Of a DNA stretch of 57,216 bases, positions 11,276 through 45,559 are shown one piece after another; within the stretch, counting starts at the first letter, position 1; every line of letters begins with the position of its first letter. This DNA comes from a virus (Duplodnaviria; Caudoviricetes). The notes beneath the pieces were generated by a model, which saw only the letters and a program-made list of their open reading frames with translations, searched no databases and was not told the origin of the DNA. The stretch spans positions 1 through 57,216 of the IMG/VR virus record IMGVR_UViG_3300035182_001074. The stretch is one strand, 5' to 3'. The translations under genes and the position numbers were made by a program.

Positions 11276-11710
11276 ATGGCCAAGACTATCACTGCCGCAA
11301 ACAGCGTCTTCACGCTGGTTGTCCCCGGTCTTTTCGACTCCCCCGTCCAGCTGGAAGGGTATGGCGCTGATGAAGCTGTCAGCACTGACTCCATCGCTAG
11401 TGCTGAGGCTATCATTGGTGTGGATGGACACAAGAGCGCAGGGTTCGTGTTCGCTCTCGTGAAGCAGAAGATCACCATCGAGCCGACAAGCCCTTCTCTC
11501 GATTTCTTCTACGAGTGGATCCGGGCAATGCAGAGTCAGCGGGAGGACCTCCCTTGCGATGGTGTGATCGATCTTCCTGCCATTGGCCAGACTTACAACT
11601 GCGTCAATGGCTCGCTCACACTGTATCCGCCACTTCCTGGCATCAAGAAGGTTCTTCAGCCTTTGCAGTTTGAAATCACATGGGAACGCGTGGAAGCAGC
11701 TGGGGTGTAG
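11276..11710 (+). CDS. Tail tube protein
   Basis: TITAAN, GVDGHKSAG and KKVLQP..F.ITW; follows the sheath. Confidence 0.85.
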   Translation: MAKTITAANSVFTLVVPGLFDSPVQLEGYGADEAVSTDSIASAEAIIGVDGHKSAGFVFALVKQKITIEPTSPSLDFFYEWIRAMQSQREDLPCDGVIDLPAIGQTYNCVNGSLTLYPPLPGIKKVLQPLQFEITWERVEAAGV

Positions 11711-11711
11711 C

Positions 11712-12179
11712 ATGCGCAAGACTGAAGTATTCATCGGTGACAGCGGACGAGATACTGGCAAGGTATTTCTGCTGAAGGAGATGTCTGCTGATCGAGCAGA
11801 GAAGTGGGCAGCTCGTGCTCTCAATGCTCTTGCTGCTTCTGGCGTTCAGGTTCCAGACGGAGCTGGGCTGTCTCACATTGCAGCCATTGGCTTTGATTCC
11901 TTCAGAGGTCTTCCGTGGGAACAGGTGGAGCCTCTACTGGATGAGATGTTCTCCTGCGTTCAGAGAATCCCAGATCCAGAGAAGAAATCAGCACAGTTCC
12001 CTCTGGGGTATTCACGACCGCTCATGGAAGATGACATTGAGGAGGTGCTCACTCGTTTGAAGATACGAGGCAAGATCCTGGAGCTGCACCTCGGTTTTTC
12101 TATCGCCGACGCCCTCTCAACCTTGAGAGGCCCCAACGTCGGCAAGCCCCAAACGAATACCGGAACGTCCCTGGAATAA
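11712..12179 (+). CDS. Tail assembly chaperone (gpG-like)
   Basis: GRD.GK.F...EM.A..AEKWA and DIEEV.T motifs; lies between tube and tape measure. Confidence 0.8.
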   Translation: MRKTEVFIGDSGRDTGKVFLLKEMSADRAEKWAARALNALAASGVQVPDGAGLSHIAAIGFDSFRGLPWEQVEPLLDEMFSCVQRIPDPEKKSAQFPLGYSRPLMEDDIEEVLTRLKIRGKILELHLGFSIADALSTLRGPNVGKPQTNTGTSLE

Positions 12180-18778: not shown

Positions 18779-19105
18779 ATGGCCTACACCGGTCCCACCT
18801 TCCTCAGTCGCCAGGGGCCCACAGATCTCATCAACGCTGTATCGGCTGCGCCAATCGTCATCCCTGGCAGGGTCATCGGCCTGTGGGCCTGCCTGCCTCC
18901 TGGTTGCGCCCCTGTCATACCAGGACAGACCGCTTGTCCTCGGCCTATCCTGGTAGCTATGCAGGCCCACAATCAGGTCCACACCCTCTACGGTGAGCGC
19001 ATCCCGTCTCCACCAATGGGCCAACAGGTGGTGCTGATGCTGCCTGCCGTTTATAGCCGAGGAGGCATACCACTCAAGGGCCAGCAATTCCCGATATCGA
19101 GGTAG
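18779..19105 (+). CDS. Hypothetical Pro-rich tail-module protein
   Basis: ORF fills the gap between flanking genes; no recognisable motif. Confidence 0.5.
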   Translation: MAYTGPTFLSRQGPTDLINAVSAAPIVIPGRVIGLWACLPPGCAPVIPGQTACPRPILVAMQAHNQVHTLYGERIPSPPMGQQVVLMLPAVYSRGGIPLKGQQFPISR

Positions 19106-19108
19106 TGC

Positions 19109-19978
19109 ATGGCAATCCAGACATCATTCTCTAAGAAGACCATCACAGTGGTGTTTACGCTATCCACTGGAACCTTCGATACAGTGAATAACCAGACCAC
19201 AGTCACTGGGCTGCGGATGGCAGTTGAGATTGATAAAGGAGGCCATCCCAGCAAGAATACCGCTCATCTCAAAATATATGGCATGCTGGATAGAGATATG
19301 AACGCACTCTCATCTCTTGCCTTCCGTCCGCTGTCGGTGAAGAAGAATCTTGTTCAGGTGCTGGCTGGTGATCTCAACAGCTCGTCTGTCGTATTCCAAG
19401 GCGAGATAAGCGAAGCATTCGCCAGCTTCCAGTCGCCTCCTGACCTATTCTTTGATGTGAAGGCTGTGGCAGGATACTATCCTGCTATTGTGCCAGTGCC
19501 TCCTAAGAGCTATCGTGGTGCTACTTCAGTAGATACTATCATGGCTACTCTCGCATCCCAGATGGGCTACTCATTTCAGAATAATGGGGTGAATGTTACC
19601 CTGGACAGTCCTTATTTGTATGGGACTGCTTGGCAACAAGCTGCCTCTGTTGCTGATGCAGCTAACATTGAATTTGGCATAGACGATGATCAATTATTCA
19701 TCGCCCCAAGAAATAAGCCTCGCGCTGGCCGCGCAGTGCTCATCAATGCAGATTCAGGTATGAAGGATTACCCAATTTTCGACAAGAATGGTTTGAAAGT
19801 CATCACACTCTTCAATCCTTCAGTGCAGCTTGGTGGGCTTATCCAGGTTCGGTCAGCAGTGAAGCCAGCAAACGGAGTGTGGAGAGTCCACAGCCTGAAG
19901 CACAGCCTTGAAGCAGAGTATCCGAACGGAAAGTGGCTTTCAACGATCAGTGCTTCGTATGTAGGAGGCGGCCAATGA
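19109..19978 (+). CDS. Baseplate hub protein
   Basis: A.LKIYG, VFQGEI..A, F.NNGV and G.W.V....H.LE..PNG.W motifs. Confidence 0.8.
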   Translation: MAIQTSFSKKTITVVFTLSTGTFDTVNNQTTVTGLRMAVEIDKGGHPSKNTAHLKIYGMLDRDMNALSSLAFRPLSVKKNLVQVLAGDLNSSSVVFQGEISEAFASFQSPPDLFFDVKAVAGYYPAIVPVPPKSYRGATSVDTIMATLASQMGYSFQNNGVNVTLDSPYLYGTAWQQAASVADAANIEFGIDDDQLFIAPRNKPRAGRAVLINADSGMKDYPIFDKNGLKVITLFNPSVQLGGLIQVRSAVKPANGVWRVHSLKHSLEAEYPNGKWLSTISASYVGGGQ

Positions 19979-26258: not shown

Positions 26259-26423
26259 ATGCTCACTTCCTTTCTTACCAATGCTGTCGTCCTCATCATT
26301 GGCATTCTGCTCGGTGGTTTTATCTTCCGCCGCGACCCTGTGAGCAGAGCCAAGACGTTGGATGCGCTTGAGAAAGCCTACGCTGATGCAAAATCAAAGC
26401 TGACTGCCAAGGCTCACAAGTAG
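26259..26423 (+). CDS. Small membrane protein (54 aa)
   Basis: AGGAGG RBS, one TM helix and a basic amphipathic tail. Confidence 0.65.
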   Translation: MLTSFLTNAVVLIIGILLGGFIFRRDPVSRAKTLDALEKAYADAKSKLTAKAHK

Positions 26424-26437
26424 TTCAAGCAGGCACA

Positions 26438-26474
26438 AAAATAGGCCACAGGCATAAGCTCTGTGGCCTATTTT
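26438..26474. terminator. Bidirectional intrinsic terminator between the convergent arms
   Basis: AAAATAGGCCACAG-9 nt-CTGTGGCCTATTTT. Confidence 0.88.
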
Positions 26475-26496
26475 CTATCTGGATGTGGGAAAGAAC

Positions 26497-26700
26497 TCAG
26501 CGCACAAGATCAGGAGAAGGCGATCCCTCTGTGCTGAGGAACGCGGCGATTTTGGCCTCAAGATCTGCGATTCCGACCTCCAACTCTGCAACTTTGGCTT
26601 CCATCGTTCGCCATGCCTCGGTTGGCGAGCAGGTATGGATGGCACCGTCTTCTTGGCTCTCGGTGAGGGTCAGGCACCGAGGGCAACATTTTGCCTTCAT
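26497..26700 (-). CDS. Small Cys/His protein with coiled coil
   Basis: AAGGAG RBS; CPRC...HTC motif. Confidence 0.6.
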   Translation of the reverse strand: MKAKCCPRCLTLTESQEDGAIHTCSPTEAWRTMEAKVAELEVGIADLEAKIAAFLSTEGSPSPDLVR

Positions 26701-26925
26701 GGCTGCTCCTTCTGGTTCATGTCTCGCGACAGGCGGACTAGCTGCTCGCCCAAATTAAAGTTAGGGTTCTCGCTTCTCGCTCGGTTCGGTGCGATCGGTG
26801 GCGATGATCTGGTGATAGCAGTCGGGCCTGTAGATCGTCAACCCATATGGGCCCGGGAACGGGACCCAAGGCTTCCGACAGATTGGGCAATAGGTAATTT
26901 CGTAGACTTCCTTCATGCTGGTTCC

Positions 26926-27729
26926 TCACTTCATCTCACTAACTGCTCGCTCAACCCACTCCGCCTGACGATAACAGGTGGCTGGGAATCCGTATTCGGC
27001 ACAGCTACAGTATTCACAGCAGGGCTCAGAGACTTCGTGAGCTACAAGAATTCCCAGTTCAGTGGCCTTGTCTTGAAGTTCCCCTCCGTCCACGTCTCCG
27101 ATGGAATCACCACCGCGGGATGCGTCGAGGCACCAGAGGGCGAAATGTGCCAGTCTCAAAAGCTGGTCGTCGCGGCCTAACTCTGCGCTCAGCTCAGGCT
27201 CTGCCTCATGTGTGTTCTGGCTCGCCAGGTCTATTCCTTTCTCTGGGAGAGCCGAGGGGCTTGGGTGCTGTGCTGCTCGCTCCTTATCCCAGCGTTCCCA
27301 GCAGGCGGCCTTATTCTCGAAGTGAGGGCATCGGCTGAATGAAGACCCAAGGCAGGCGTCGCATTCCTTCCATCCTGGGTTCGGTCCGGGTGTGCATTGC
27401 TCCCACCAGCGCGGACAGGTGAATGCGCGATTCTCCATGCCAGGCTTGAATGGTTCACCGGCAAGCCAATTGGCCAACGGCATCCCTCCGAAGTCCTCCA
27501 GCCTGTAGCCGTTCCCTTTCCCGATCCTGATGCCAGGGTTTGCCTGGTAAACGCGCTTGATCCCAGGTAGTTCTTTGCGCCCAGTGAAGGGCTGGAAAAC
27601 CGATTCGCACCACCCCGTCCCCTTGCAGGAGTGGCAGACCACCGCTGCGCCCTTGCCCTCGCCCATGCCAGAATAGAGCCCTGTCCCGTGGCAAGAACCG
27701 CACTCGTGCTTTACCTTGATTTCTTTCAT
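26926..27729 (-). CDS. DnaJ-type zinc-finger protein fused to a second Cys-rich domain
   Basis: Two CxxCxGxG motifs; AAGGAG RBS; the domain junction coincides with an attC-like half site at 27175. Confidence 0.75.
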   Translation of the reverse strand: MKEIKVKHECGSCHGTGLYSGMGEGKGAAVVCHSCKGTGWCESVFQPFTGRKELPGIKRVYQANPGIRIGKGNGYRLEDFGGMPLANWLAGEPFKPGMENRAFTCPRWWEQCTPGPNPGWKECDACLGSSFSRCPHFENKAACWERWDKERAAQHPSPSALPEKGIDLASQNTHEAEPELSAELGRDDQLLRLAHFALWCLDASRGGDSIGDVDGGELQDKATELGILVAHEVSEPCCEYCSCAEYGFPATCYRQAEWVERAVSEMK

Positions 27730-27814
27730 TTCTTCTCCTTCAACTTGTTCGTTGTTCGCAGTCTAACCATTCGTCCCAGCGACCTGCCGAGCTGCTGAAC
27801 TCAGGCAGTAGGCA

Positions 27815-27979
27815 TCATTGCTCCATTAGCAGGTTGTATTCGATGTTCCTCTTGGCTCGATCTGAGCTGGCGCATTCCGAGCACAGGTAGGCATTCGGCG
27901 GGATACTGCGGTCATGCCCATTGTCGGCAGGTCCACCGCACCATGGGCACTTGCTCAAATCAGTCTGTTTGTCTTCCAT
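27815..27979 (-). CDS. Small zinc-ribbon protein
   Basis: CPWC...CSEC; GAGGA RBS. Confidence 0.6.
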   Translation of the reverse strand: MEDKQTDLSKCPWCGGPADNGHDRSIPPNAYLCSECASSDRAKRNIEYNLLMEQ

Positions 27980-28291
27980 CGGTTCCTCAGGCTGGCACAA
28001 TGGCCAGTGAACTTCTCGTTAGGTGCTAAATGGCCATTTCGATTTTCCGAGCTAGGCTGCGCACATGTTTGATGTTGTGGAGGGTTCGGAGAGAGGGCTT
28101 TACCCTGTGCTTGATTCTCTGCCGCATAAATGCTGCGCCGATGAAACAACCAGCCCCAAATGCTATTAACACTGCTCCAATCATCTGTCGCTCCCACGCC
28201 TAACCTGGCGCTGCACTCGGACCCTGCTGCCTGGGTGAATTGTAAAGGATTTCTTGACAGCTCCCGGGGCAGAGCTGGGGAGCTTGGGTTG

Positions 28292-28594
28292 TTAGGCGTC
28301 ATTCGTTGCGGAAAAAACACACTTGAACTCTGAAACATTGGCATCAATCCACCATGCCTCACCAAATTTGTTGTGGTGATCTGGCAGCTTGTGAGCTTCT
28401 CCCTCGACCTCATATATGACCGTCCGGCCAACCTTCATCGCCCATGCCATCGCAGCTTGAAGGGTTGTGAATCCTCGCACAGGCTTACGAATGTAGCCAG
28501 TTTCCCTATAGAGGCGAGCCTTCCGTTCTGTGGTCGCGTGGTATAGCCTAACTGTGCGCTTAACTAGGGCCTCTCCTTCATTGCTCTGGTTCAT
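28292..28594 (-). CDS. Hypothetical protein, possible ADP-ribosyltransferase-like fold
   Basis: GGAG RBS; LYHAT motif near the N-terminus; bounded by attC-like sites. Confidence 0.6.
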   Translation of the reverse strand: MNQSNEGEALVKRTVRLYHATTERKARLYRETGYIRKPVRGFTTLQAAMAWAMKVGRTVIYEVEGEAHKLPDHHNKFGEAWWIDANVSEFKCVFSATNDA

Positions 28595-28667
28595 GTTGTT
28601 TCTCCTTGGCTCACGACAGATCAGGCTAGCTGGTCGCGAATGACGAAGTCGTCATCAATGGCATTTA

Positions 28668-28970
28668 TCATGTCCGCTCCTGCCAGTGCGTCGGCAGTTG
28701 AAATCCCTTCAGCTTTTCTTGGCCCACACCGTCGCTGGCATAGGACCACCAGCCCTCCCACTCTTCCAGGCGGTCCCAGCCAAAAAAGTATTGCCCGAAG
28801 TCTTCCCATTCCTCGCGGCTCCTATACCATGCGGGACGCACGACCGCCACGCCTGCGCAGTCCAGCAGCACCAGCACTTCTGTTCCGTTTCGTGGAGCTG
28901 TCTCAATCGGCAGCCACACGCCCAACCGAGTGCTGCACTCGGATCCTTCCTCGGGTGTGTTCTGATTCAT
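28668..28970 (-). CDS. DUF551-like protein
   Basis: WLPIETAPRNGTEVLV...PTHW; GGAGG RBS before MNQNT. Confidence 0.75.
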   Translation of the reverse strand: MNQNTPEEGSECSTRLGVWLPIETAPRNGTEVLVLLDCAGVAVVRPAWYRSREEWEDFGQYFFGWDRLEEWEGWWSYASDGVGQEKLKGFQLPTHWQERT

Positions 28971-29036
28971 GTTGTTCCTCCATGGCCCATAGCAGAGCTG
29001 GTTAGCTGGTTCTGTGATGTGAAGATCGGTGGACAC

Positions 29037-29366
29037 TTAACACGGCATATGGGGGAGCGACATCAGTCGGTTCGCAACCCTTGAATGGGTGATGAGAAAT
29101 GCTGAGGCTTCAGCTTCATAGGTTGGAGCCACGATGCGCTTCTGTCCTGCAATCCCACGGAGAACGCAGGTCGCATCGCGAGCGTATGCTCGCAGCTCGT
29201 TGAGTTCAGCCTGCATCGCGAGCTGAGTTGTAGTGAAGGATGGTAGCTCGTTGGGCATGCCGAGCAGATCGTTGAGTGCTTCACGAGCAGCATCGCACAC
29301 GCCAGTAGGAGCATAGGCGATGGCTGTACGAACTTGGGAGAGTAGCTCGGCTCGGTCACTTGGCAT
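29037..29366 (-). CDS. Hypothetical protein
   Basis: ORF tiles with its neighbours; helical composition. Confidence 0.5.
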   Translation of the reverse strand: MPSDRAELLSQVRTAIAYAPTGVCDAAREALNDLLGMPNELPSFTTTQLAMQAELNELRAYARDATCVLRGIAGQKRIVAPTYEAEASAFLITHSRVANRLMSLPHMPC

Positions 29367-29562
29367 CGGAGGAATCCAGCATTGTGGCACCCGAGAATGC
29401 GGGCGGAATCTGCGAAGCCACAGAGGCATCAGACATCAGCTTTGCGAGCTCGTCTCGAAGTTTGCGGTAGCGTTCCTCGTGTGCCTTGATGATGGCATCG
29501 CGAAAAGTCTCCTCAATCTGGAGAATGTTGCTCTGGATTGCATACTTGCGGAGAGGATCCAT
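29356..29562 (-). CDS. Hypothetical coiled-coil protein
   Basis: GAGG RBS before ATG 29562. Confidence 0.5.
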   Translation of the reverse strand: MDPLRKYAIQSNILQIEETFRDAIIKAHEERYRKLRDELAKLMSDASVASQIPPAFSGATMLDSSDAK

Positions 29563-29570
29563 GGTGTGCC

Positions 29571-29840
29571 TCAGAAGGAGAAATAAAGAGTTAAGAGATA
29601 GAACAGAAGGCCGATGACAGATACCAGCATAAGGATAAATCCTTTGCTCGCTGGCTTCCAGAACTGCCACCACTGCGGAGTCGCATTGCGGGGCTGCCAA
29701 TGTGCTCGTGTGATGCTCTTGCACCTATTACCAATGCCAAGTCGTTTGCGCCTGATGGTCGTTCTGATGCTCGGCATCAATGACCATCCAGCTGTGAAGA
29801 CGAAAATTAAAACTAAGAGGTATAAAACTGCTAGCGACAT
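29571..29840 (-). CDS. Small two-TM membrane protein
   Basis: AGGAGG RBS; hydrophobic N- and C-termini. Confidence 0.6.
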   Translation of the reverse strand: MSLAVLYLLVLIFVFTAGWSLMPSIRTTIRRKRLGIGNRCKSITRAHWQPRNATPQWWQFWKPASKGFILMLVSVIGLLFYLLTLYFSF

Positions 29841-29848
29841 ATCTCCTC

Positions 29849-30271
29849 CTAGCTGAACGACGACAGAAGGACAGCAGAGACTCTCGGCCATCCAAGAACG
29901 AGTGGGATGTGATACAATTGCACCCTTCGCATGAGACCAGGAAGGTCAGTTTCTGCTTCAACTGAGCATTCCCCAGGAATGAACAGGATGCTGTCTGTGC
30001 TCTTTATGTGGATGATCGTAACAGCATTGCCGCCACTAGCCACGTGGTGTTCTAGCCAGTATGATTGCCGAGGCCGATATTTGACCCGACGTGGAATGGT
30101 CTGCTCCTCCTTCACTTCTACCCAGCCTGCTATTCGAGTTGCTTTGTGAACGCAAGCATCATCAGGGATGCCAGGAGCTGTTGTGTGGCTCTCGATGCGA
30201 TCAAACTTCCATCCAAGTAGAGTTAGCTCTGTCCTGAATGTTTTGTTGAACGCAGATTCTTTGATGGCCAT
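29849..30271 (-). CDS. PD-(D/E)xK nuclease (VRR-NUC / Holliday junction resolvase-like)
   Basis: RIE...PGIPD...WVEVK...RPRQ..W; adjacent to the SNF2 helicase. Confidence 0.8.
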   Translation of the reverse strand: MAIKESAFNKTFRTELTLLGWKFDRIESHTTAPGIPDDACVHKATRIAGWVEVKEEQTIPRRVKYRPRQSYWLEHHVASGGNAVTIIHIKSTDSILFIPGECSVEAETDLPGLMRRVQLYHIPLVLGWPRVSAVLLSSFS

Positions 30272-30274
30272 TGC

Positions 30275-32074
30275 CTACTCCATGAACAATGATATTGGGT
30301 CGCGAGTGATCTGATCTGCAATCTCTTTTTTCTCCCTAAGATCAGTCACGATCTTCTTGTCGATGCCTGTGGTGTAGATGTCTGTGTAAAGGACGCTGTC
30401 GTGGATCTCAGACCCAATGCGATGGTTGCGGTCTTCACTCTGCATACGAATGCGCAGCGAGAAGCTGTTTGTGTAATAAAAGGATTGCTCCGCAGCAGTC
30501 AATGTCAGGCCCACTGCTGCTGCCTTGGACGCAAGGAACCATCTAGGCTTGTCGCTGTCCTGGAATCGTTTGATCGCAGCGGAGCGAGCAGCATCACTCA
30601 CCCCACCGTGATATTCCACGAACTCACCCATCTGCTCCTTACGCAGCAACGCTGCAATTGCCGCGATGTCCTCTCGGCTATTGGTTGCGTTCACCCAGAT
30701 AATTGCCTTACCTCGCGCATACCCAAGCAGCGTAAGCAGCGCCTCTTGTCGGCGATTCTTGGCCTCTAAGGGTATGGCAGCCTCGCCGGATGAGAAGGGC
30801 TGCCAGCCACAAGTGATCTGCTGCAGCCGGATCAGCTTGGTCAGTGCAATTTCTTGGGCGAGCTTGGCCCCGTTCTCCTTCCCGAATACTTCTTGCAATT
30901 CTCTGATCGCCTGACGCCGAACAGCGTCATAGGCTTGCTGCTGGAACTCAGACATCTCAAAGAAGTGACGTTTGTATAGTTTGGGTGGTAGGGATGGCAG
31001 AACATCTTTCTTAAGCACACGATGAGAGTTGCCATCAAGGATGTCAGCTAGAACCTCAATGTGCTTGTATCCTACCACGCTGTGCTGTTGGAACCCACCC
31101 ATGATACAGAACTGGGCTTTGAAGCTCGTGAAGGTGTCATAGCCAAGGATCAGAGGATCAAGGAATCTGAATTGTGAGAACAGATTCTCAACACCCTCTG
31201 TGATTGGCGTCCCATTGAGGATGCGTTTGTATTTTGCTAGCTTGCCAACCCTGGTGATGAACTCTGTCCTCTTGGTTCCTGGGTTCTGGATGGTGTTTGA
31301 TTCATCCACTACGAGCAAGCAGCGATGGTTTGTTAGGAACTCAGTGATGAGATCCTTCGCTGCCTGAGCAGTGAATCCTTCAACATTGAAGGCTACCACG
31401 GTGCATGGCCTTCGTTTGCGCAGCTTGTATGGCTGTGATTCTCCCTCAAGCATCTTGCGTTCGTTTTTATTTGCACCAGTGTGATAGGTGAGCAGCTTGG
31501 CAGGAATCCGATCAGGGAGGTGGGCAGGAAGCTCCTCAACGATCCAATTTGTATGGACACCATTTGGTGCAATCACCACCATGACATCCACCTCGTCTTT
31601 CTCCCAGAGGTAAGCGAATGTGTCAATTGCAACCTTGGTCTTCCCACATCCCTGCTCATACAGTATTGCAAAGTTGCGCAGGTCACGGCTGATGATAAAT
31701 CCGTGGCGCTGGTGTGGGAATGGGACTGTTTTGAACTCATAGCCTGAGTCGTCTATCAGCTGCTCCTTCTTCAGACCGCGCATGGTCTGCTCTTGCATCT
31801 TCACCGAGACGTAATCATTCATGTATGATGCTGCCTCGCTGCTCCACTCTGCAGATGGCCAGTTGTCCAGGATGAACTGGATGTTGGCACCCGTTGGCCT
31901 GAAGACCAGCGTGCGTTCAACCCAACGTTTGTGGCCAGGAAGAGACCCAAGCAGAGCAAAGCAGCGAGGCACATCACAATCAATAGCAAGGCATTCGATC
32001 TGCGGTTTGTAATCGCCAGTTGATGGATCATATTTGGTGATCCTCATTGGCTTGCGCATCTCAGATGCTTCCAT
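30275..32074 (-). CDS. SNF2-family (SF2) DNA helicase
   Basis: EQGCGKT, VVDES, LNGTP, GLTLTAA and QSEDRNHRIG. Confidence 0.92.
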   Translation of the reverse strand: MEASEMRKPMRITKYDPSTGDYKPQIECLAIDCDVPRCFALLGSLPGHKRWVERTLVFRPTGANIQFILDNWPSAEWSSEAASYMNDYVSVKMQEQTMRGLKKEQLIDDSGYEFKTVPFPHQRHGFIISRDLRNFAILYEQGCGKTKVAIDTFAYLWEKDEVDVMVVIAPNGVHTNWIVEELPAHLPDRIPAKLLTYHTGANKNERKMLEGESQPYKLRKRRPCTVVAFNVEGFTAQAAKDLITEFLTNHRCLLVVDESNTIQNPGTKRTEFITRVGKLAKYKRILNGTPITEGVENLFSQFRFLDPLILGYDTFTSFKAQFCIMGGFQQHSVVGYKHIEVLADILDGNSHRVLKKDVLPSLPPKLYKRHFFEMSEFQQQAYDAVRRQAIRELQEVFGKENGAKLAQEIALTKLIRLQQITCGWQPFSSGEAAIPLEAKNRRQEALLTLLGYARGKAIIWVNATNSREDIAAIAALLRKEQMGEFVEYHGGVSDAARSAAIKRFQDSDKPRWFLASKAAAVGLTLTAAEQSFYYTNSFSLRIRMQSEDRNHRIGSEIHDSVLYTDIYTTGIDKKIVTDLREKKEIADQITRDPISLFME

Positions 32075-37355: not shown

Positions 37356-37380
37356 GGCACACTCCTTTTCTTCAATTGAG

Positions 37381-37451
37381 CGATCTGGCTCATCAGCAGT
37401 AGCGGATCATTGCTACTGGACGGTGCGGCAAGCTCGCCGCACCGTTTCGCC
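37381..37451 (-). ncRNA. Type II hammerhead ribozyme 2
   Basis: GGC-GAAAC-GGUGCGGC/GCCGCACC-GUC-CAGUAGC/GCUACUG-CUGAUGA-GCC. Confidence 0.93.
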
Positions 37452-37481
37452 TCATGCAGTGATCTTCGGAACAGCTTGCAA

Positions 37482-37718
37482 TTATTTCCCCACTGTCGTA
37501 GGCCGCATTGCCATGCTCATGCGGTCGAATGCCTGGTCAATGTGTTCAACAGCAGAAGTGATGTGGTGCTTTTCGCCGCGCAGCTTCACGCTGGCCAGTT
37601 CAATTTTCAACCGCAGCAGCGTTGCTTGAACCTTCTTTAGCTTCTCAATTGTGCGTTCACGCTCAGTCATTTGGTCCCCTGAAGTGGGAAGGGCTGTGGG
37701 CTGGATCGTTGCGCTCAT
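37482..37718 (-). CDS. Small helical hypothetical early protein
   Basis: AAGGAG RBS; lies between hammerheads 3 and 2. Confidence 0.7.
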   Translation of the reverse strand: MSATIQPTALPTSGDQMTERERTIEKLKKVQATLLRLKIELASVKLRGEKHHITSAVEHIDQAFDRMSMAMRPTTVGK

Positions 37719-38423: not shown

Positions 38424-41282
38424 CGCATCACGCTTGGAATACTGCTCCAAAGCCCCGACCCCGCTGAGCTTTCGCCAGGCAGTTATGCGCACCTGCCTGA
38501 AGCCAGCTTTCACTTTGCCCTTGAAGATGAACCAATCGTTCATGCGCCCATGCTCAATCAGCGGCAAACCAAGCTTGTTGTAGTCGTGCCGATCAACCAT
38601 GCACGCAATCTGATCTGTGTCGTCTTCTGCTGTGAACAGCACCATCAGGCTCGGTCCCTTGATGATGCTGCCATTGCGCTTCTTCACGTGCGTTGGATCA
38701 TTGAGATCGCGAAGATCCTTCTCGATGATCTTAGCAATGAAACAGCATTCTACTTCTCCATCCTCACTCTGCACATCCTCAACATTTTTCAGCTTTGATC
38801 TGATGCCATAGCGCCCCGGCTCTCGCTTTAGGTGGCCCCATCTCTCTTCACACTCAAAGATGTGGTCGTATGGGGTTGAGCCATTGGCGAGTTTGTTCTG
38901 CTGGCCTGCTGTCAATTCAATGCCTCGTGACCTGCGTAAGAGGATCTCGCTGGCCATCTTCTCGCCAATGCCCTTGATGTTTGTCAGTCCGCCAATCAGT
39001 TGCCCTTCTTGCACTGACCAGGTCTTCTGGGAAAGAAAAGGATCGTATGGCTTGAAGACATAGCCTTCCTTATGAAGCTCCCGCAGGAGCCGGATGGACT
39101 GCTCCTCGTCTTTGGCATTGCGAAGGCAAGCAGCACCAAACTCCAAGGGGAACTTCGCCTTCATTACCATGCACCAATAGCTGACCATTGCGTATGCAAC
39201 TGCGTGGCTTCGGTTGAATGACCACGAACCCATGGTGTTGATCTGGTTCCAGACTCGCAGAGCATCATCCTCATTGATTCCCTGCTCAATTGCGCCAGTG
39301 CGAAAACGGAACCAATACTGATCAAAGAATTCTTTCCCCAAGGATTTTGACATTGCTTTGCGCAGACTTGTCACATCTGCCCAGCTCAACTTACCCATGT
39401 CACGCGCAATCTGGATCACCTGCTCCTGGTAGATCACGATGCCATAGGTAACCCTGGTGATGTGAGCGATCATCGGATGCAATGGGGTCGCTGGGTGTTC
39501 CCCGGTTCTCCTTCTGATATACTCTGTGGTGCCTCCTGAATGCAACGGACCAGGCCGTGCTAGGGCTGTCATTGCTGCGATATCTTCAAAGTTCTCCACT
39601 GCGAACTGGTTGACCAAGGACTGAAGTGCATGGCCTTCAAACTGGAAAATGCCTGCGAACTTCCTGTCGTTTAGGATGTTGAACGCAGACGCATCATCAG
39701 TTCTGTAATCAATCAGCTGCTCGCGAGTCCATCCAACCTGGTCAAGACAATCCTGAAGAACAGATAGTGTCCGCAGGCCAAGCGCATCAATCTTCAGAAG
39801 GTTCAATCGTTCTGCATCAACCTTGTCAATCTGAGCAGCACCCTTCTGGTTGTCAACTGAACAGTAATAGCTGATTGGCTCTGCAGTCACGATGATGCCA
39901 GCAGCATGCTGACCATGCCCTGATGCGTGCCCTTCAATGTCGCTTGCTGTGATCATCTGCGGATATTTTCGCAGCACTGCTCGGCCAATCTCAAGCTCAC
40001 TGAAGGTGTCAGCAATGCAAAAGCCTGCGCGAGAATCTCCACCACTTCGTTCAATGATTGAGTTTTTCAAGTCTGTGACTTCCCACAAGGGAACGTTCAA
40101 TGCCTTAGCGATGGTGTCGATGGCGCTCTTGGCTTTGTAACGCATAACAGTTCCCAGCCGGGCGACCTTCTCCTGACCATATTTCCTGTATAAATATTCG
40201 AACACCAGGTCGCGACGATCGTCGGGGAAGTCAATGTCAATATCAGGATAGTCAAAACGATTGACGTCAATGAATCGTTCAAAGAGCAGTCCGTAAGGAA
40301 TCGGGTCAATCTCTGTGATGCGCAGCAGGTAGCACACAAGCGAGCCACAGGACGAGCCACGCGCAGGACCAACCAGCATTTCACTTTTTGCATATTGAAC
40401 CAGATCCCACACGAGGTAGAAGTAGTCCTCAAATCCTTTGTCGTGGATCAGTTCCAGTTCCCGATCTAGCCTCGCTGCATAAACTGGATCTTTCAAGTCA
40501 ACCTTGCGCTGTGGAGCGGCCTGCTCACACAGCGCACGCAGAGTCGGTAATGATGGATCTGCCTTGACCATCGTGCCGATTGGCAGGTCTGCGTTGCACA
40601 TTTCCGCAATCTCAGCTGCGGTGCGCAATGCTTCCTCCTGTCCAGGCCAACACAGTTTCCATTCGGTGCTGCTCAGCAGATGCATAGGCGAAGTTCTCAT
40701 CAGCTTTTCATGGCCAGTCAGAGCTTCATACACTGCCTTATCGGTGATGCGCGGATAATAATTATCTGAGGTTGCAACTGTCTTGAACCCACGCATGCTG
40801 GCGAATTCTGGTGCCTTCATCTGCGAAGCTGGGCTTAGCTCAACGTATATATTTTTTCGCTTTGGTAAATTGCCCCACACAGGATGCGAGCCAGACAGAA
40901 CAATGACGCTGTCGCTGATATCAAGAAGTGTCGTGTAGTCAATGCGAGGGGTGTAGTAGAAGTTCTCTTTCTTGGTGCTGAGCCCAACAAGCTCATAGAT
41001 CTCACGCAGCCCTTTGTTGTCTTTGGCCAAGAACACCATCATGTTCATGCCCTGTTTGGTGCGAGCAGTCATGTCATTGACTACTGCTAGCTCAACCCCG
41101 AAAATCGGCTTGCGCTTGGCTGCTTTGCATTTGTCATTCCACTCAACATGGCCAAATGTATTGTAGCGATCTGTTATGGCGACAGGCCCTTCTGTTGCTG
41201 CCAGCACCTTGTCAACAGGACCGAATGCCTCTCTAAACGAATACTCAGTCCTACATCGAAGGTGGATCATCGCAATCTCCAT
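38421..41282 (-). CDS. dnaE: DNA polymerase III alpha subunit-like (family C)
   Basis: PHP-like N-terminus, GPARGSS.GSLV.YLL.IT, PDIDIDF, HAAG, KID.LGL, YQEQ and FN.SHA.AY. Confidence 0.95.
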   Translation of the reverse strand: MEIAMIHLRCRTEYSFREAFGPVDKVLAATEGPVAITDRYNTFGHVEWNDKCKAAKRKPIFGVELAVVNDMTARTKQGMNMMVFLAKDNKGLREIYELVGLSTKKENFYYTPRIDYTTLLDISDSVIVLSGSHPVWGNLPKRKNIYVELSPASQMKAPEFASMRGFKTVATSDNYYPRITDKAVYEALTGHEKLMRTSPMHLLSSTEWKLCWPGQEEALRTAAEIAEMCNADLPIGTMVKADPSLPTLRALCEQAAPQRKVDLKDPVYAARLDRELELIHDKGFEDYFYLVWDLVQYAKSEMLVGPARGSSCGSLVCYLLRITEIDPIPYGLLFERFIDVNRFDYPDIDIDFPDDRRDLVFEYLYRKYGQEKVARLGTVMRYKAKSAIDTIAKALNVPLWEVTDLKNSIIERSGGDSRAGFCIADTFSELEIGRAVLRKYPQMITASDIEGHASGHGQHAAGIIVTAEPISYYCSVDNQKGAAQIDKVDAERLNLLKIDALGLRTLSVLQDCLDQVGWTREQLIDYRTDDASAFNILNDRKFAGIFQFEGHALQSLVNQFAVENFEDIAAMTALARPGPLHSGGTTEYIRRRTGEHPATPLHPMIAHITRVTYGIVIYQEQVIQIARDMGKLSWADVTSLRKAMSKSLGKEFFDQYWFRFRTGAIEQGINEDDALRVWNQINTMGSWSFNRSHAVAYAMVSYWCMVMKAKFPLEFGAACLRNAKDEEQSIRLLRELHKEGYVFKPYDPFLSQKTWSVQEGQLIGGLTNIKGIGEKMASEILLRRSRGIELTAGQQNKLANGSTPYDHIFECEERWGHLKREPGRYGIRSKLKNVEDVQSEDGEVECCFIAKIIEKDLRDLNDPTHVKKRNGSIIKGPSLMVLFTAEDDTDQIACMVDRHDYNKLGLPLIEHGRMNDWFIFKGKVKAGFRQVRITAWRKLSGVGALEQYSKRDA

Positions 41283-41423
41283 TCCACAGTTTCAATCTTA
41301 TCACACAGATGGATTCGGATGATGTATTTCGCCCACAGATAATACCAGCTTGGTGTGCGTCCTTCAAACATGCGCCCTGAAGCTACCTCCTGAACGAAAT
41401 CATACAGCTGAGAAGGCATCATT
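41267..41423 (-). CDS. Small hypothetical protein
   Basis: Short ORF bridging the exonuclease and dnaE; start uncertain. Confidence 0.35.
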
Positions 41424-41556
41424 GGCACACCATCCTCTTTGTGAGCAGAGGACAATCCTCCACCAGAGGACAGCCGGGGCCACCCTCTGCAGAGATGCCA
41501 TCATGGCGATCTGCGATCAAGGAAACGGTCCTCATTTCTTGCTCCTTTGTCGTTAG

Positions 41557-42105
41557 TTACATCATAGATTCTGCGCGTAGCCATCTAACACAGCGCACCA
41601 GAGCCTCTGTGTCAGCCATCGCCCGATGCGCATCCTTGAAGTCTTCTCCTGTGCAATGCAGATGCAAGTCGCTAAGTCGCATGCGCTTGTTGTTGATCCC
41701 AAAACTTGCCTCAACGGTGCACACCTGCTTTGGTGGCCAAGGAAAGGCAAACTCCTTACCGATGCGAATCAGTTCAAGCTTGAGCAGCGTCTTATCAAAG
41801 TCCAGATTGTGCGCAACCATCATCTGCTCCCCGAGGAAGAAGTCACACAGATCATGATAGTGCGAGGCGAAAGGCTCCTGATCCTTCAGCATTTCATCCG
41901 TAATGCTCGTGATCTTGATGATCTCTTCTGGGAGAGCACAGCCGGGATTGCACATGAAGGTAAGGCGCTCAATTTCCTCCAGCGTGATGTCATCCAGCTT
42001 CACTCCGGCGAATTCAATGATCTGTGGCTGCTCTTCAATGCGGACTAGGCTTGGCAGGATCAGGCCTGTTGTCTCAGTATCGAAGATGATCATAGGTTCG
42101 ACCAC
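41557..42105 (-). CDS. DEDDh 3'-5' exonuclease (Pol III epsilon-like)
   Basis: FDTETTG, AHN..FD and HRA.AD. Confidence 0.92.
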   Translation of the reverse strand: MVEPMIIFDTETTGLILPSLVRIEEQPQIIEFAGVKLDDITLEEIERLTFMCNPGCALPEEIIKITSITDEMLKDQEPFASHYHDLCDFFLGEQMMVAHNLDFDKTLLKLELIRIGKEFAFPWPPKQVCTVEASFGINNKRMRLSDLHLHCTGEDFKDAHRAMADTEALVRCVRWLRAESMM

Positions 42106-43894: not shown

Positions 43895-45559
43895 TCACAG
43901 CACCTCCTCGCCTCTGGTATAGAGAACGTTGTTGTGCCAGATGCAGTGGCTGTGTGGCCAACGCATGGCACTCTCTACATCAGGGAAGAATCCGCTGCCA
44001 TTGAGATTGGCGCTGGTATTGCACAGCAGAGGGATGCCCGTTATCTCATAGTAGCGAGTGAGCAGATCGCACACGACGAAGTTCTCTGTAGCATTGACAG
44101 TCTGCAGTCGCGCAGTGCCATCAAGGTGCACAATCGCCGGCACCTTCGCCACCCATTCATCCTTCACACGATGATCGAAGAGCATGAATGGATCAGGAGT
44201 CCCGGGAGTGAAAACTTCTGGAGCATGCTGCTCCAAGCATATCGGCGCCACAGGACGGAACGACTCTCTGAGCTTCATCTCATTGAGTAGTCCTTTTGTT
44301 TCTGCATGGATGGCAGAGCACAAGATACTCCGGTTGCCCAGCGCACGAGGCCCAGCTTCACACCGACCATTCAGGAACACAACCGGAGTATCAGGGTGGG
44401 TCGCAAAGAACTGAGCCAGCTCACTGATTGAACATTCCTTCTGCACCCAACCTTCCGGAATCGTTCCGATCTGTGCTTCCATGCCGCAATATACGCTCCA
44501 GTCGAGCTCAAGAATGCCATCCTCGGTGAACATCGCACAGGCAGCAGCACCAATTGCGCTACCAGAGTCATTGGGGAATGGAGGGACATAGACTGCTTTG
44601 AAGTGCCCACTGTTGCGCAATGCGCTATTCCATTTGATGTTGAGTGCGCTGCCGCCTGTGAAGCACAAATTCGCACCCTTGGGAATAATTGCGCAGGCAT
44701 TCTCCACCAGCATGATCTTCAACCATTCATGGATTGAAGCGAGCACATCAGCATCACTCAGATTGCCAATTGACTCCACTTCTGCCTTCACCCCACGCAT
44801 GAACTCATGCTCCATGATTCCTGTCTGGTTGTAGCCAAGAGGGCAGTCGTCGTTGATGTTGCTCACACGGAAATAGATGCCCATCATTCGCTGAACTAGA
44901 TCAGGGCTGGCAGTTCCTTGCGCGATGTAGCTCATCAATTTTCCTGGGACATCATATCCGCGTCCATACCGCGTCACCTGCTTGATGTCTTCACCCCACA
45001 CATGCGGTTCTTTGTATGGGCCATAGTAGTAGCCCATCACCGCATAGATGATGCCGTAGAGTTCAAACAGTGACGAAATGAATTGGAACTTGCCGAGGCC
45101 AGGATCGAAATAATGGACACGCGGATTCTGCCCGCCATCCCAGCTGATGAAGTAGCAGCACTCTCGGTTCTTGGCGAATGGGCTAGTAACGTAAGCACTC
45201 ATCAGGTGTCCGCTCATGTGTGGGAAGCTGATGTAGTTGCCAAAGATTTTGTCTTCTGGGTAGAACACCGACGGATCGAGTGGATGCTGATTGCTGCTAT
45301 CAAATTCTGAATAGCCAGCAACCTCAAAGGTGCCAGCCGGGGAGATGGCGCTGCTGTACTTCCAGCCATCTAGAACGAACAGGTCTGGGACAAAGTTGAA
45401 ATGCTCCAGAATGTCATCCACATCATCGGTGGTCGTCATTTTTGAGTAGCGAGGATTGTTGCGCAGCTTCTCTATCTCCACACAGAAGAGCAGCTTGCCA
45501 TCCTCAATCCCTGCCACTGCTGCGTCATGGGTCAGCTTGATGCCGCAGATCTTTGTCAT
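43895..45559 (-). CDS. O-carbamoyltransferase (NodU/CmcH/TobZ family)
   Basis: THDAAVA, HMSGH, GKLM, GG.ALN, PPFPND.G.AIG, E.GPRALG.RS, K.RE.FRP.AP, H.DGTAR.QTV and NTS.N. Confidence 0.93.
   Translation of the reverse strand: MTKICGIKLTHDAAVAGIEDGKLLFCVEIEKLRNNPRYSKMTTTDDVDDILEHFNFVPDLFVLDGWKYSSAISPAGTFEVAGYSEFDSSNQHPLDPSVFYPEDKIFGNYISFPHMSGHLMSAYVTSPFAKNRECCYFISWDGGQNPRVHYFDPGLGKFQFISSLFELYGIIYAVMGYYYGPYKEPHVWGEDIKQVTRYGRGYDVPGKLMSYIAQGTASPDLVQRMMGIYFRVSNINDDCPLGYNQTGIMEHEFMRGVKAEVESIGNLSDADVLASIHEWLKIMLVENACAIIPKGANLCFTGGSALNIKWNSALRNSGHFKAVYVPPFPNDSGSAIGAAACAMFTEDGILELDWSVYCGMEAQIGTIPEGWVQKECSISELAQFFATHPDTPVVFLNGRCEAGPRALGNRSILCSAIHAETKGLLNEMKLRESFRPVAPICLEQHAPEVFTPGTPDPFMLFDHRVKDEWVAKVPAIVHLDGTARLQTVNATENFVVCDLLTRYYEITGIPLLCNTSANLNGSGFFPDVESAMRWPHSHCIWHNNVLYTRGEEVL

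Follow-up and report, generated by a model that had tools for sequence, protein, structure and literature searches.

The stretch of DNA analysed here (the window) is the whole of one IMG/VR virus record, IMGVR_UViG_3300035182_001074, a phage genome of 57,216 bp with direct terminal repeats that is rated 100% complete. Up to ~26.4 kb the + strand carries structural and lysis genes, and from 26.5 to 54.7 kb the genes lie on the - strand. At the 3' end of this leftward block, between 26.7 and 29.0 kb, small genes are interspersed with integron attC sites or their remains (Table 1). No Phage_integrase (PF00589) domain was found anywhere in the 57-kb record, which is therefore without a tyrosine recombinase and without the integron integrase IntI. 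The phage is myovirus-like and, because it has no such domain, probably virulent in lifestyle. The region has one recognisable attC site (s4) and several relics.

Table 1 Features of the attC region and its boundary, in order of position (R1, covariance model described in the text; aa, amino acids; nt, nucleotides)
Feature	Position	Strand	Description
Inverted repeat	26438-26474		Perfect 14-bp inverted repeat with flanking A/T runs, between the convergent arms; closes the array region
p67	26497..26700	-	Last gene of the leftward operon; common to viral contigs G013 and G016 (79-83% nt)
Right-half relic	26701..26766	+	R' GTTAGGG (with the p51 stop on the - strand), L'-like GGACTAGC, loop start codon
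p51	26761..26916	-	Small Cys-containing protein; from the open reading frame (ORF) list and codon model
p267	26926..27729	-	In-frame fusion of a Cys-rich part of ~150 aa (27729-27275) and a domain of ~85 aa (27174-26926), linked by translated s2
s2	27175..27274	+	Full-length attC relic within the p267 coding sequence; R'' GCCTAAC intact, R' now CTGTGCT
s3	27761..27813	+	Short-type attC relic, 53 nt; R'' GTCTAAC, R' now AGTAGGC
p61	27815..27979	-	54 aa from ATG, zinc-ribbon; weakly Lar-like (restriction alleviation)
Half relic	28006..28024	+	L'-R' end AGTGAAC-TTCTC-GTTAGGT, between the p52 stop and the p61 Shine-Dalgarno (SD) sequence
p52	28026..28184	-	Hydrophobic small protein, 52 aa; next after s4; ambiguous codon-model call
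s4	28198..28297	+	Recognisable attC, 100 nt; R1 E 1.2e-8
p100	28292..28594	-	100 aa; start in s5, leader MNQSNEGEALVKRTVRL; stop in the s4 R' box
s5	28546..28644	+	Full-length attC relic; R'' GCCTAAC, L'' GCTTAACTAGG, L' CAGGCTAGC, R' now GAATGAC
p101	28668..28970	-	100 aa; start in s6, leader MNQNTPEEGSECSTRLG from loop-L''-R''
s6	28920..29020	+	Full-length attC relic; R'' GCCCAAC and L'' intact, L' GGTTAGC, R' now GTGATGT

Motif enrichment and model matches

A first-pass annotation made from the letters of the sequence had reported six + strand motifs and three right ends as parts of attC-like sites, and all of these are present at the positions given. The motifs are clearly enriched: RYYYAAC-N5-GYY occurs 17 times in the window as against 5.17 +/- 2.32 in 100 shuffles, none of which reached 17, and five + strand copies fall within 27175-28934 (1.76 kb), where ~0.08 would be expected (Poisson P 2.5e-8). 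They are parts of longer repeats, with 28195-28225 resembling 28917-28947 (84%), 28582-28634 resembling 28958-29010 (79%) and 27175-27266 resembling 28198-28289.

We built a covariance model, R1, from only 30 Geothrix attC sites as input and scanned the window with filters off. R1 matches s4 over its full length (model positions 1-124, 36.9 bits), on the + strand only, and the remaining window sites lie below significance. A sequence hidden Markov model (HMM) of the same 30 sites, run with nhmmer, gave s4, s5, s6 and s2 as the top four window matches, each on the + strand and beginning at model position 1; s4 alone is individually significant (E 0.004), with s5 at E 0.13 and s2 at E 2.2. HMMs of half-sites were too short for significance, s4 excepted.

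The sites belong to an attC family of bacterial integrons

A 23-nt box taken from two window copies was found in four other viral contigs. Among the matches of a 21-nt box to bacterial genomes, three are by eye clear attCs of the window family (L008, L014 and L015), a fourth (L020) is doubtful and the others are seemingly unrelated. The three clear sites come from Marinobacter, a Myxococcales metagenome-assembled genome and Candidatus Geothrix odensensis.

The Geothrix genome encodes an integron integrase that scores 461 bits against a cut-off of 265. Beside it (L032) stand 15 near-uniform sites of 124 nt, and a second array (L034) holds 15 more. The cassette ORFs of both arrays are sense to the strand that reads GCCTAAC-N5-GCT[C/G][A/C]AC-T-CGG-A-CCCC, which is the + strand of the window. 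Folding the 30-site alignment gave an R box, a 5/7-nt unpaired spacer and an L box in which columns 16 and 20 are unpaired and a 4x3 loop spans 24-27, with compensatory changes at pairs 17-109 and 19-107. These unpaired positions fit the layout of three extrahelical bases (16, 20, 24) that Nivina 2016 describes for VCR2 and attCoxa2.

The Geothrix and window sites are of one family, with R'' GCCTAAC, a 5-nt spacer, L'' GCT-N-NAC-T-CGG-A-CCC, L' CCG-GTN-AGC, a 7-nt spacer and R' GTTAGGC. They differ in that the Geothrix sites are near uniform at 124 nt, have sense ORFs and a loop that is pyrimidine-rich on the coding strand, and are accompanied by IntI, whereas the phage sites are heterogeneous (53-101 nt), have antisense genes and no IntI. 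The second Geothrix array (G001:C1 304000-322000, at least 15 sites) lies a few kilobases from a partial IntI match (G001:C1:305844-306362, 85.6 bits, model 6-181) and may be an integron with a broken integrase.

One recognisable site among relics

Site s4 consists of R'' GCCTAAC, a 5-nt spacer, L'' GCT-G-CAC-T-CGG-A-CCC, a loop, L' (ending in CTGGGGAGC), a 7-nt spacer and R' GTTAGGC. Its core boxes are perfectly complementary across 100 nt, in keeping with the definition of attC by inverted boxes (RYYYAAC and GTTRRRY, 50-150 nt); s2, s3, s5 and s6 depart from this definition in their R' boxes (Table 1). An alignment with the Geothrix consensus places a 5/7-nt spacer and extra bases at 16/20/24 in s4, which by reading retains only ~7/9 of the L-box pairs. 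Its R' box holds the TAA stop of p100, and the ATG of p52 lies 14 nt past its R'' box on the - strand.

The relics are tied to intact sites by homology. Site s6 is homologous over 76 nt, loop included, with an intact attC of viral contig G007 (21322-21421, 44.4 bits), and s5 is a 79% repeat of s6. Site s2 repeats s4 at a constant offset of 1023, and its counterpart in G013 is an intact attC with a GTCTAAC box that holds a stop codon. Site s3, which gave no R1 match in the window scan, aligns base for base to intact short attCs of G013 (L056 2229-2282, 28.9 bits) and G007 (19814-19870, 31.9 bits). The half relic at 28006 resembles the L'-R' half of a short site, is without a model match and could be the end of a truncated short-type site. 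The right-half relic at 26701 is a repeat of the right halves of s5 and s6; its loop start now opens a mini-ORF of seven codons (MNQKEQP and a stop) that overlaps the p67 ATG as ATGA. One of the six motifs of the first-pass annotation, CACTAAC-TGCTC-GCTCAACC at 26937..26956 (+), is unsupported as a site: its initial C breaks RYYYAAC and kept it out of the count above, neither the covariance model nor the HMM matches it, and the motif (read as WVERAVS) codes for EWVE.. at the C-terminus of a protein domain, a stretch conserved in free-standing homologues.

Genes run antisense to the sites

All credible genes of the array lie on the - strand and the attC top strand is the + strand, so that the genes are opposite to the sites, as had been proposed. 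Geothrix cassettes beside IntI are sense, and the window genes antisense, to the same strand. In a canonical cassette the ORF is co-oriented with the attC, which stands at its 3' end; in the window the attC is at the 5' end of the gene and sometimes contains the start codon.

The same arrangement recurs in other viruses. R1 detects arrays of six sites in viral record G004, four in G007, three in G013/L056, two in G006 and one in G005, and a second pattern scan gave 13 loci, 10 of them from contigs new to the analysis. At E <= 0.01 the viral attC sites number 40 in all, and the window attC family occurs in uncultivated viral genomes, at least 12 in number, of which four are complete. Canonical folds are formed by the sites of G004 and G013, with z -2.6 to -4.5 and, for one short site, -1.09. 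Megablast and distant blastn searches of GenBank phages returned no match to the attC family and similarity at the level of genes only, with Mom-like/acetyltransferase genes resembling one G004 cassette and genes of Pseudomonas phages PPAY and PPAT resembling p100.

The 28 inner cassettes of Geothrix comprise 19 sense, 2 antisense and 7 unclear, as against 19 antisense, 1 sense and 9 unclear among the 29 inner intervals of 11 viral contigs (Fisher P 1.7e-8). The flanking intervals of the same 11 contigs are antisense in 12 cases, sense in 4 and unclear in 5. As an independent check of polarity, PHROG matches at E <= 1e-4 were obtained for 9/28 antisense ORFs and 0/24 sense ORFs.

No integron integrase exceeded the cut-off in any of 10 viral records. 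Contig G005, the one contig with sense flanks, has an N-terminal integron integrase fragment at 37365-37565 (L065; 50.9 bits, one internal TAG) 0.8 kb from its sole attC; this 'viral' contig may carry host DNA, a piece of a host integron. At the extreme end of another viral contig, of 41.7 kb, stand seven attCs ~300 bp apart (L055; G012 38889-41738). One of them, at 135 bits, is all but identical with the Geothrix consensus, a hint of a Geothrix-like host.

Among the products of the antisense cassettes with PHROG matches are a Mom-like DNA modification protein, two Lar-like proteins and a PAPS reductase, and to judge by these annotations the cargo of phage cassettes looks anti-restriction. The Mom-like protein is encoded by a cassette of the G004 array (L049 4922-5380 (+), E 5e-37), the Lar-like proteins by cassettes of L055 and L059 and the PAPS reductase by one of L063.

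Start codons lie within the sites

Read on the - strand, the loop of s6 (GGAGGAACAACATG) has GGAGGA-N6-ATG (28970) and that of s5 (GGAGAAACAACATG) has GGAGAA-N6-ATG (28594), and p101 and p100 run from these starts through L'' and R''. The first-pass annotation had held that some genes start inside the sites and are translated through them. This stands for p100 and p101; p267 only reads through s2 (as ELSAELG), and the frame that gives ECSARLG and PNEKFTG is doubtful. A 158-aa ORF at 27955-28431 (-), which overlaps p61, p52 and p100 and translates the s4 attC (..AGSECSARLG..), is probably a shadow frame and not a gene.

The conserved domain of p101 begins directly after a Leu-Gly, the R'' box being read TTG-GGC; more generally, LG is the R'' box GTTRGGC translated as TTR-GGC. 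The p101 family has 14 proteins at E <= 0.001, the window's own included. Nine of the 13 others have a variable leader that ends in ..LG directly before a W.PIETAP core, and four start at that W. A start inside the site followed by an ORF that extends at least 30 codons past R'' is found at 22/39 viral sites and 6/30 Geothrix sites, and the in-site start is an ATG with an SD-like motif at 15 viral sites as against 1 Geothrix site (P 4.7e-4). The leader pattern GGAGRAACAACATGAAYCAGA had no matches in viral contigs. We considered the box as a functional N-terminal peptide or a phage-polymerase promoter and dropped both ideas, given that the box also has non-coding copies (s4, and a G006/G007 copy with a stop) and occurs in bacterial cassette arrays.

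In attC sites the bottom strand is purine-rich (Nivina 2016). Use of this strand as the sense strand would yield SD-like loop sequences, which would explain how the orientation of the sites fits the phage operon.

A cassette-sized block is common to two phages

The window at 27275-27816 matches G013 at 11600-12142 with 88.6% identity over 545 nt, and the flanks are unrelated on both sides. Comparison of breakpoints in related phages had been suggested as a check on the attC reading, and the block does start and end at R' boxes. At its start the R' box of the short site reads GCCTACT in the window and GCCTAAC in G013; at its end the R' box of the next site reads AGCACAG in the window and GTCTAAC, with a stop codon, in G013. 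The block is thus exactly one canonical cassette, R' to R'. Elsewhere the two genomes have in common only the p67 block and the large terminase TerL (~50%; segments of 42-76% protein identity). Homology of the p67 block begins exactly at the R' box of the right-half relic in the window, G013 and G016. Between the 545-nt and p67 blocks G013 has one gene and the window two.

Among the best 150 of 1433 p267 homologues, 143 match within residues 1-169 only and 7 within residues 171-264 only. The N-domain is a separate 153-aa ORF in G013, flanked by two intact attCs, and free-standing proteins of the C-domain have leaders of their own, such as ..GSELNAGL. These comparisons show p267 to be a fusion of two cassette genes across a dead site: with the loss of both the loop start and the R' stop of s2, the flanking cassette genes became joined in frame. 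The N-domain belongs to a CxxCxGxG zinc-finger-like family of ~150 aa, with >1400 homologues and no Pfam name.

Other genes of the array and its genomic setting

Searches of Pfam and PHROGs gave no match for p51, p52, p67, p100 or p101 and, for p267, nothing beyond a weak zinc-finger match. For p61 the Pfam match to Lar_restr_allev (E 2.7e-4) is below the cut-off, and the PHROG match is to a Lar-like protein (E 0.004); over 46 residues p61 has 87% aa identity to the C-terminal portion of a G007 protein of 110 aa. The similarity of p100 to hypothetical genes of phages PPAY and PPAT is 69% at the nucleotide level.

Upstream of the array region in the leftward block are a VRR-NUC-like gene (29849-30271) and a SNF2 helicase gene (30275-32074). 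A search of viral contigs with the SNF2 helicase found a sole backbone relative, L001 (SNF2 73% aa identical), and the same protein had no relatives among metagenome contigs. The DNA polymerase of the window gave no match in five viral records, an empty answer that carries no weight in this search. In L001, ~0.9 kb of unrelated small genes takes the place of 3.3 kb in the window, and because of this replacement the 3.3-kb region is a variable accessory slot. The inverted repeat that closes the region is probably a bidirectional terminator. In 26300-30400, predicted promoters and terminators showed no excess over shuffles; the one sigma-70-like match, at 30037 (+), compares with 2.3 expected, and none was placed to drive the minus-strand genes. 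No Rfam family matched this interval at E <= 1.

PHROG matches elsewhere in the window include portal, head protease, major head protein, tail sheath, tape measure, baseplate wedge and endolysin and, for replication and packaging, a family-A-like DNA polymerase, helicase, primase and TerL. Within the replication block lies a gene for a Nol-like carbamoyltransferase of auxiliary-metabolism type (43895-45559 (-), PHROG 1601, E 4.5e-62).

Origin of the array

We consider it likely that the region at 26.7-29.0 kb is a fossil integron-type cassette array, whose antisense cassettes moved between phages, most likely by means of a host IntI, and which has since eroded. The array would be an attC cluster without an integrase, set in the accessory region that closes the leftward operon of a probably virulent myovirus, and its sites belong to the attC family of chromosomal integrons of Geothrix and other environmental bacteria. 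A cassette consists of a phage gene and a 5' attC, delimited R' to R', with the gene reading against the attC top strand. This makes the bottom strand, rich in purines, the mRNA strand, and many loops provide an SD sequence and an ATG, followed by a short leader ending in the Leu-Gly of the R'' box. Whole cassettes would have passed between distant phages, most likely through attC x attC recombination by the integron integrase of the infected host; this mode of assembly is suggested by the sites, by their polarity and by the R'-to-R' block, and the enzyme would have to be the host's because no viral record encodes IntI. Later, the R' boxes and stems have eroded in all sites but one, and one such erosion has fused two genes. 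Within the window the sites would probably serve now as translation starts and as homology patches. The sequences show what the sites are, how they are oriented and decayed, the starts inside them and the block of cassette size that two phages have in common, whereas catalysis by IntI, the host and activity today are inferred. Recombination by a host IntI is plausible because IntI1 recombined five of six phage attC sites in vitro (Qi 2023, PMC9892861). The first-pass annotation had proposed the shuffling of phage accessory genes by a host integron integrase, and its interpretation is supported overall, with motif enrichment, an attC model match and breakpoints at R' boxes all found.

Several observations weigh against this account. 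R1 represents one genome, has an effective sequence number of 1.29 and differs from the IntegronFinder model. It is significant at 1 of ~7 window sites, and its runner-up, s6 (10.7 bits, E 0.64), is level with an unrelated match at 18792. In a DNA fold of the s4 bottom strand the R boxes pair, with a z of -0.94 and 36/200 shuffles as good, and the relics form no hairpin (z +1.86 to -0.25, with +1.86 for s5, and -0.59 for s6). Present-day recombination of the window sites is doubtful because s4 folds like shuffles and the relics have no hairpin; the array had been called partly decayed, which is right as to decay but understates its degree, given how few sites still score. The 21-nt box gave 16 matches in bacterial genomes as against ~17 by chance (by our own arithmetic), and among the loci of the second pattern scan L054 and L060 have no R1 match at E <= 0.01. 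Strand was called by a codon model trained on the long genes of the window phage, which left 9/29 viral intervals unclear; intervals within an array are not independent, and contigs L050, L054 and L056 have common segments. Finally, the p67 block ends within a gene and the similarity of p61 to G007 begins within an ORF, which indicates other modes of exchange too.

The loss of R' and stem from most window sites, the homology boundaries that lie inside genes and the lack of IntI in the window and in all 10 viral records would also be expected if the repeats were homology patches only, that is, if a single ancient attC had been captured and homologous or illegitimate recombination among phages had then spread its copies along with genes, with an integrase never involved. 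We think this unlikely. Other phage arrays have up to 6-7 well-folded sites of 57-129 nt that form subfamilies and have canonical bulges (z -2.6 to -4.5), a structure that is hard to keep without selection, and the 545-nt block ends at crossover boxes on both sides and not anywhere in the ~100-nt repeats. It is improbable, too, that the elements were kept for expression, as portable 5' modules or as RNA hairpins for mRNA stability or translation, with their likeness to attC a matter of ancestry only. An SD-ATG in the loop at 15/39 phage sites as against 1/30 bacterial sites speaks for such a role, as does the survival in the window of the translated half (L''-R'') where the untranslated R' end decays. 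A role in expression leaves unexplained the R'-to-R' exchange of a block and the sites that have no internal start (s4 and the short sites), no Rfam family matches, and such a role is compatible with an integron origin rather than opposed to it. That a short degenerate motif clustered by chance in GC-rich coding DNA is scarcely credible: RYYYAAC alone is common, and the motif at 26937 is probably a case of this kind, but the enrichment, the long repeats, the R1 match (E 1.2e-8) and the homology to intact attCs already refute chance for s4, s6, s5, s2 and s3.

A wider possibility, which we put forward tentatively, is that a distinct pool of phage-type inverted cassettes exists, self-contained as translation units that function at any landing point in a phage operon, shuffled among unrelated phages by host integrases and often carrying anti-restriction cargo (Mom-like, Lar-like). 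If so, cassettes could possibly be exchanged with the host's own array, where they would be silent against the cassette promoter Pc; the bottom strand would be the non-template strand, so that transcription of the phage operon would expose the recombinogenic strand.

Relation to known systems and implications

Reverse-oriented cassettes are known from chromosomal integrons, where they encode toxin-antitoxin and defence functions, have their own promoters and are a minority within sense arrays. The window resembles them in having genes antisense to the attC top strand in a co-oriented array, and differs in that the whole array is antisense and read by a phage operon, with the attC loop as translation start. 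Lambdoid phages have 'boundary sequences', short conserved sequences at gene junctions that have no hairpin and allow module exchange by homologous recombination. The window elements likewise are conserved sequences at junctions where modules are exchanged, but they are attC sites and have defined crossover boxes.

Phage attC clusters without an integrase (CALINs) are of an already published kind, with 17 reported in 21 integron-bearing phages (Qi 2023, PMC9892861). Like those, the window has attCs between the small accessory genes of a phage, virulent phages being included there too, and no IntI; the published sites were proposed to open the cassette pool to phages, and anti-restriction functions are among their cargo. 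The record has no PF00589 match, as expected of a CALIN and unlike a complete integron (intI, attI and Pc), which requires a tyrosine recombinase. With one site at E <= 0.01 the window falls short of the rule of at least two sites (Qi 2023) unless relics are counted; arrays that pass include those of G004, G007 and G013/L056. The main text of Qi 2023 treats cassettes 'oriented in the same direction' as the usual state of bacterial arrays and makes no mention of antisense genes or in-site starts; the words 'antisense', 'opposite' and 'reverse' do not occur in that text, and orientations may be listed in its supplementary tables. A full-text literature search together with the main text of Qi 2023 yielded no antisense phage cassettes, attC-borne start codons or cassette-sized transfer between distant phages.

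For annotation, attC relics account for odd common N-terminal leaders, mini-ORFs and a gene fusion in the window phage. With the inverted design, the purine skew of attC bottom strands gains an explanation that can be tested. Integrons are known as devices of bacteria, and attC clusters borne by phages entered the literature only in 2023, from 21 phages. The present array suggests that phages trade genes through integron machinery, and if host integrases act in this way, integrons would be a gene market common to bacteria and phages and would give anti-defence genes a path from phage to phage.

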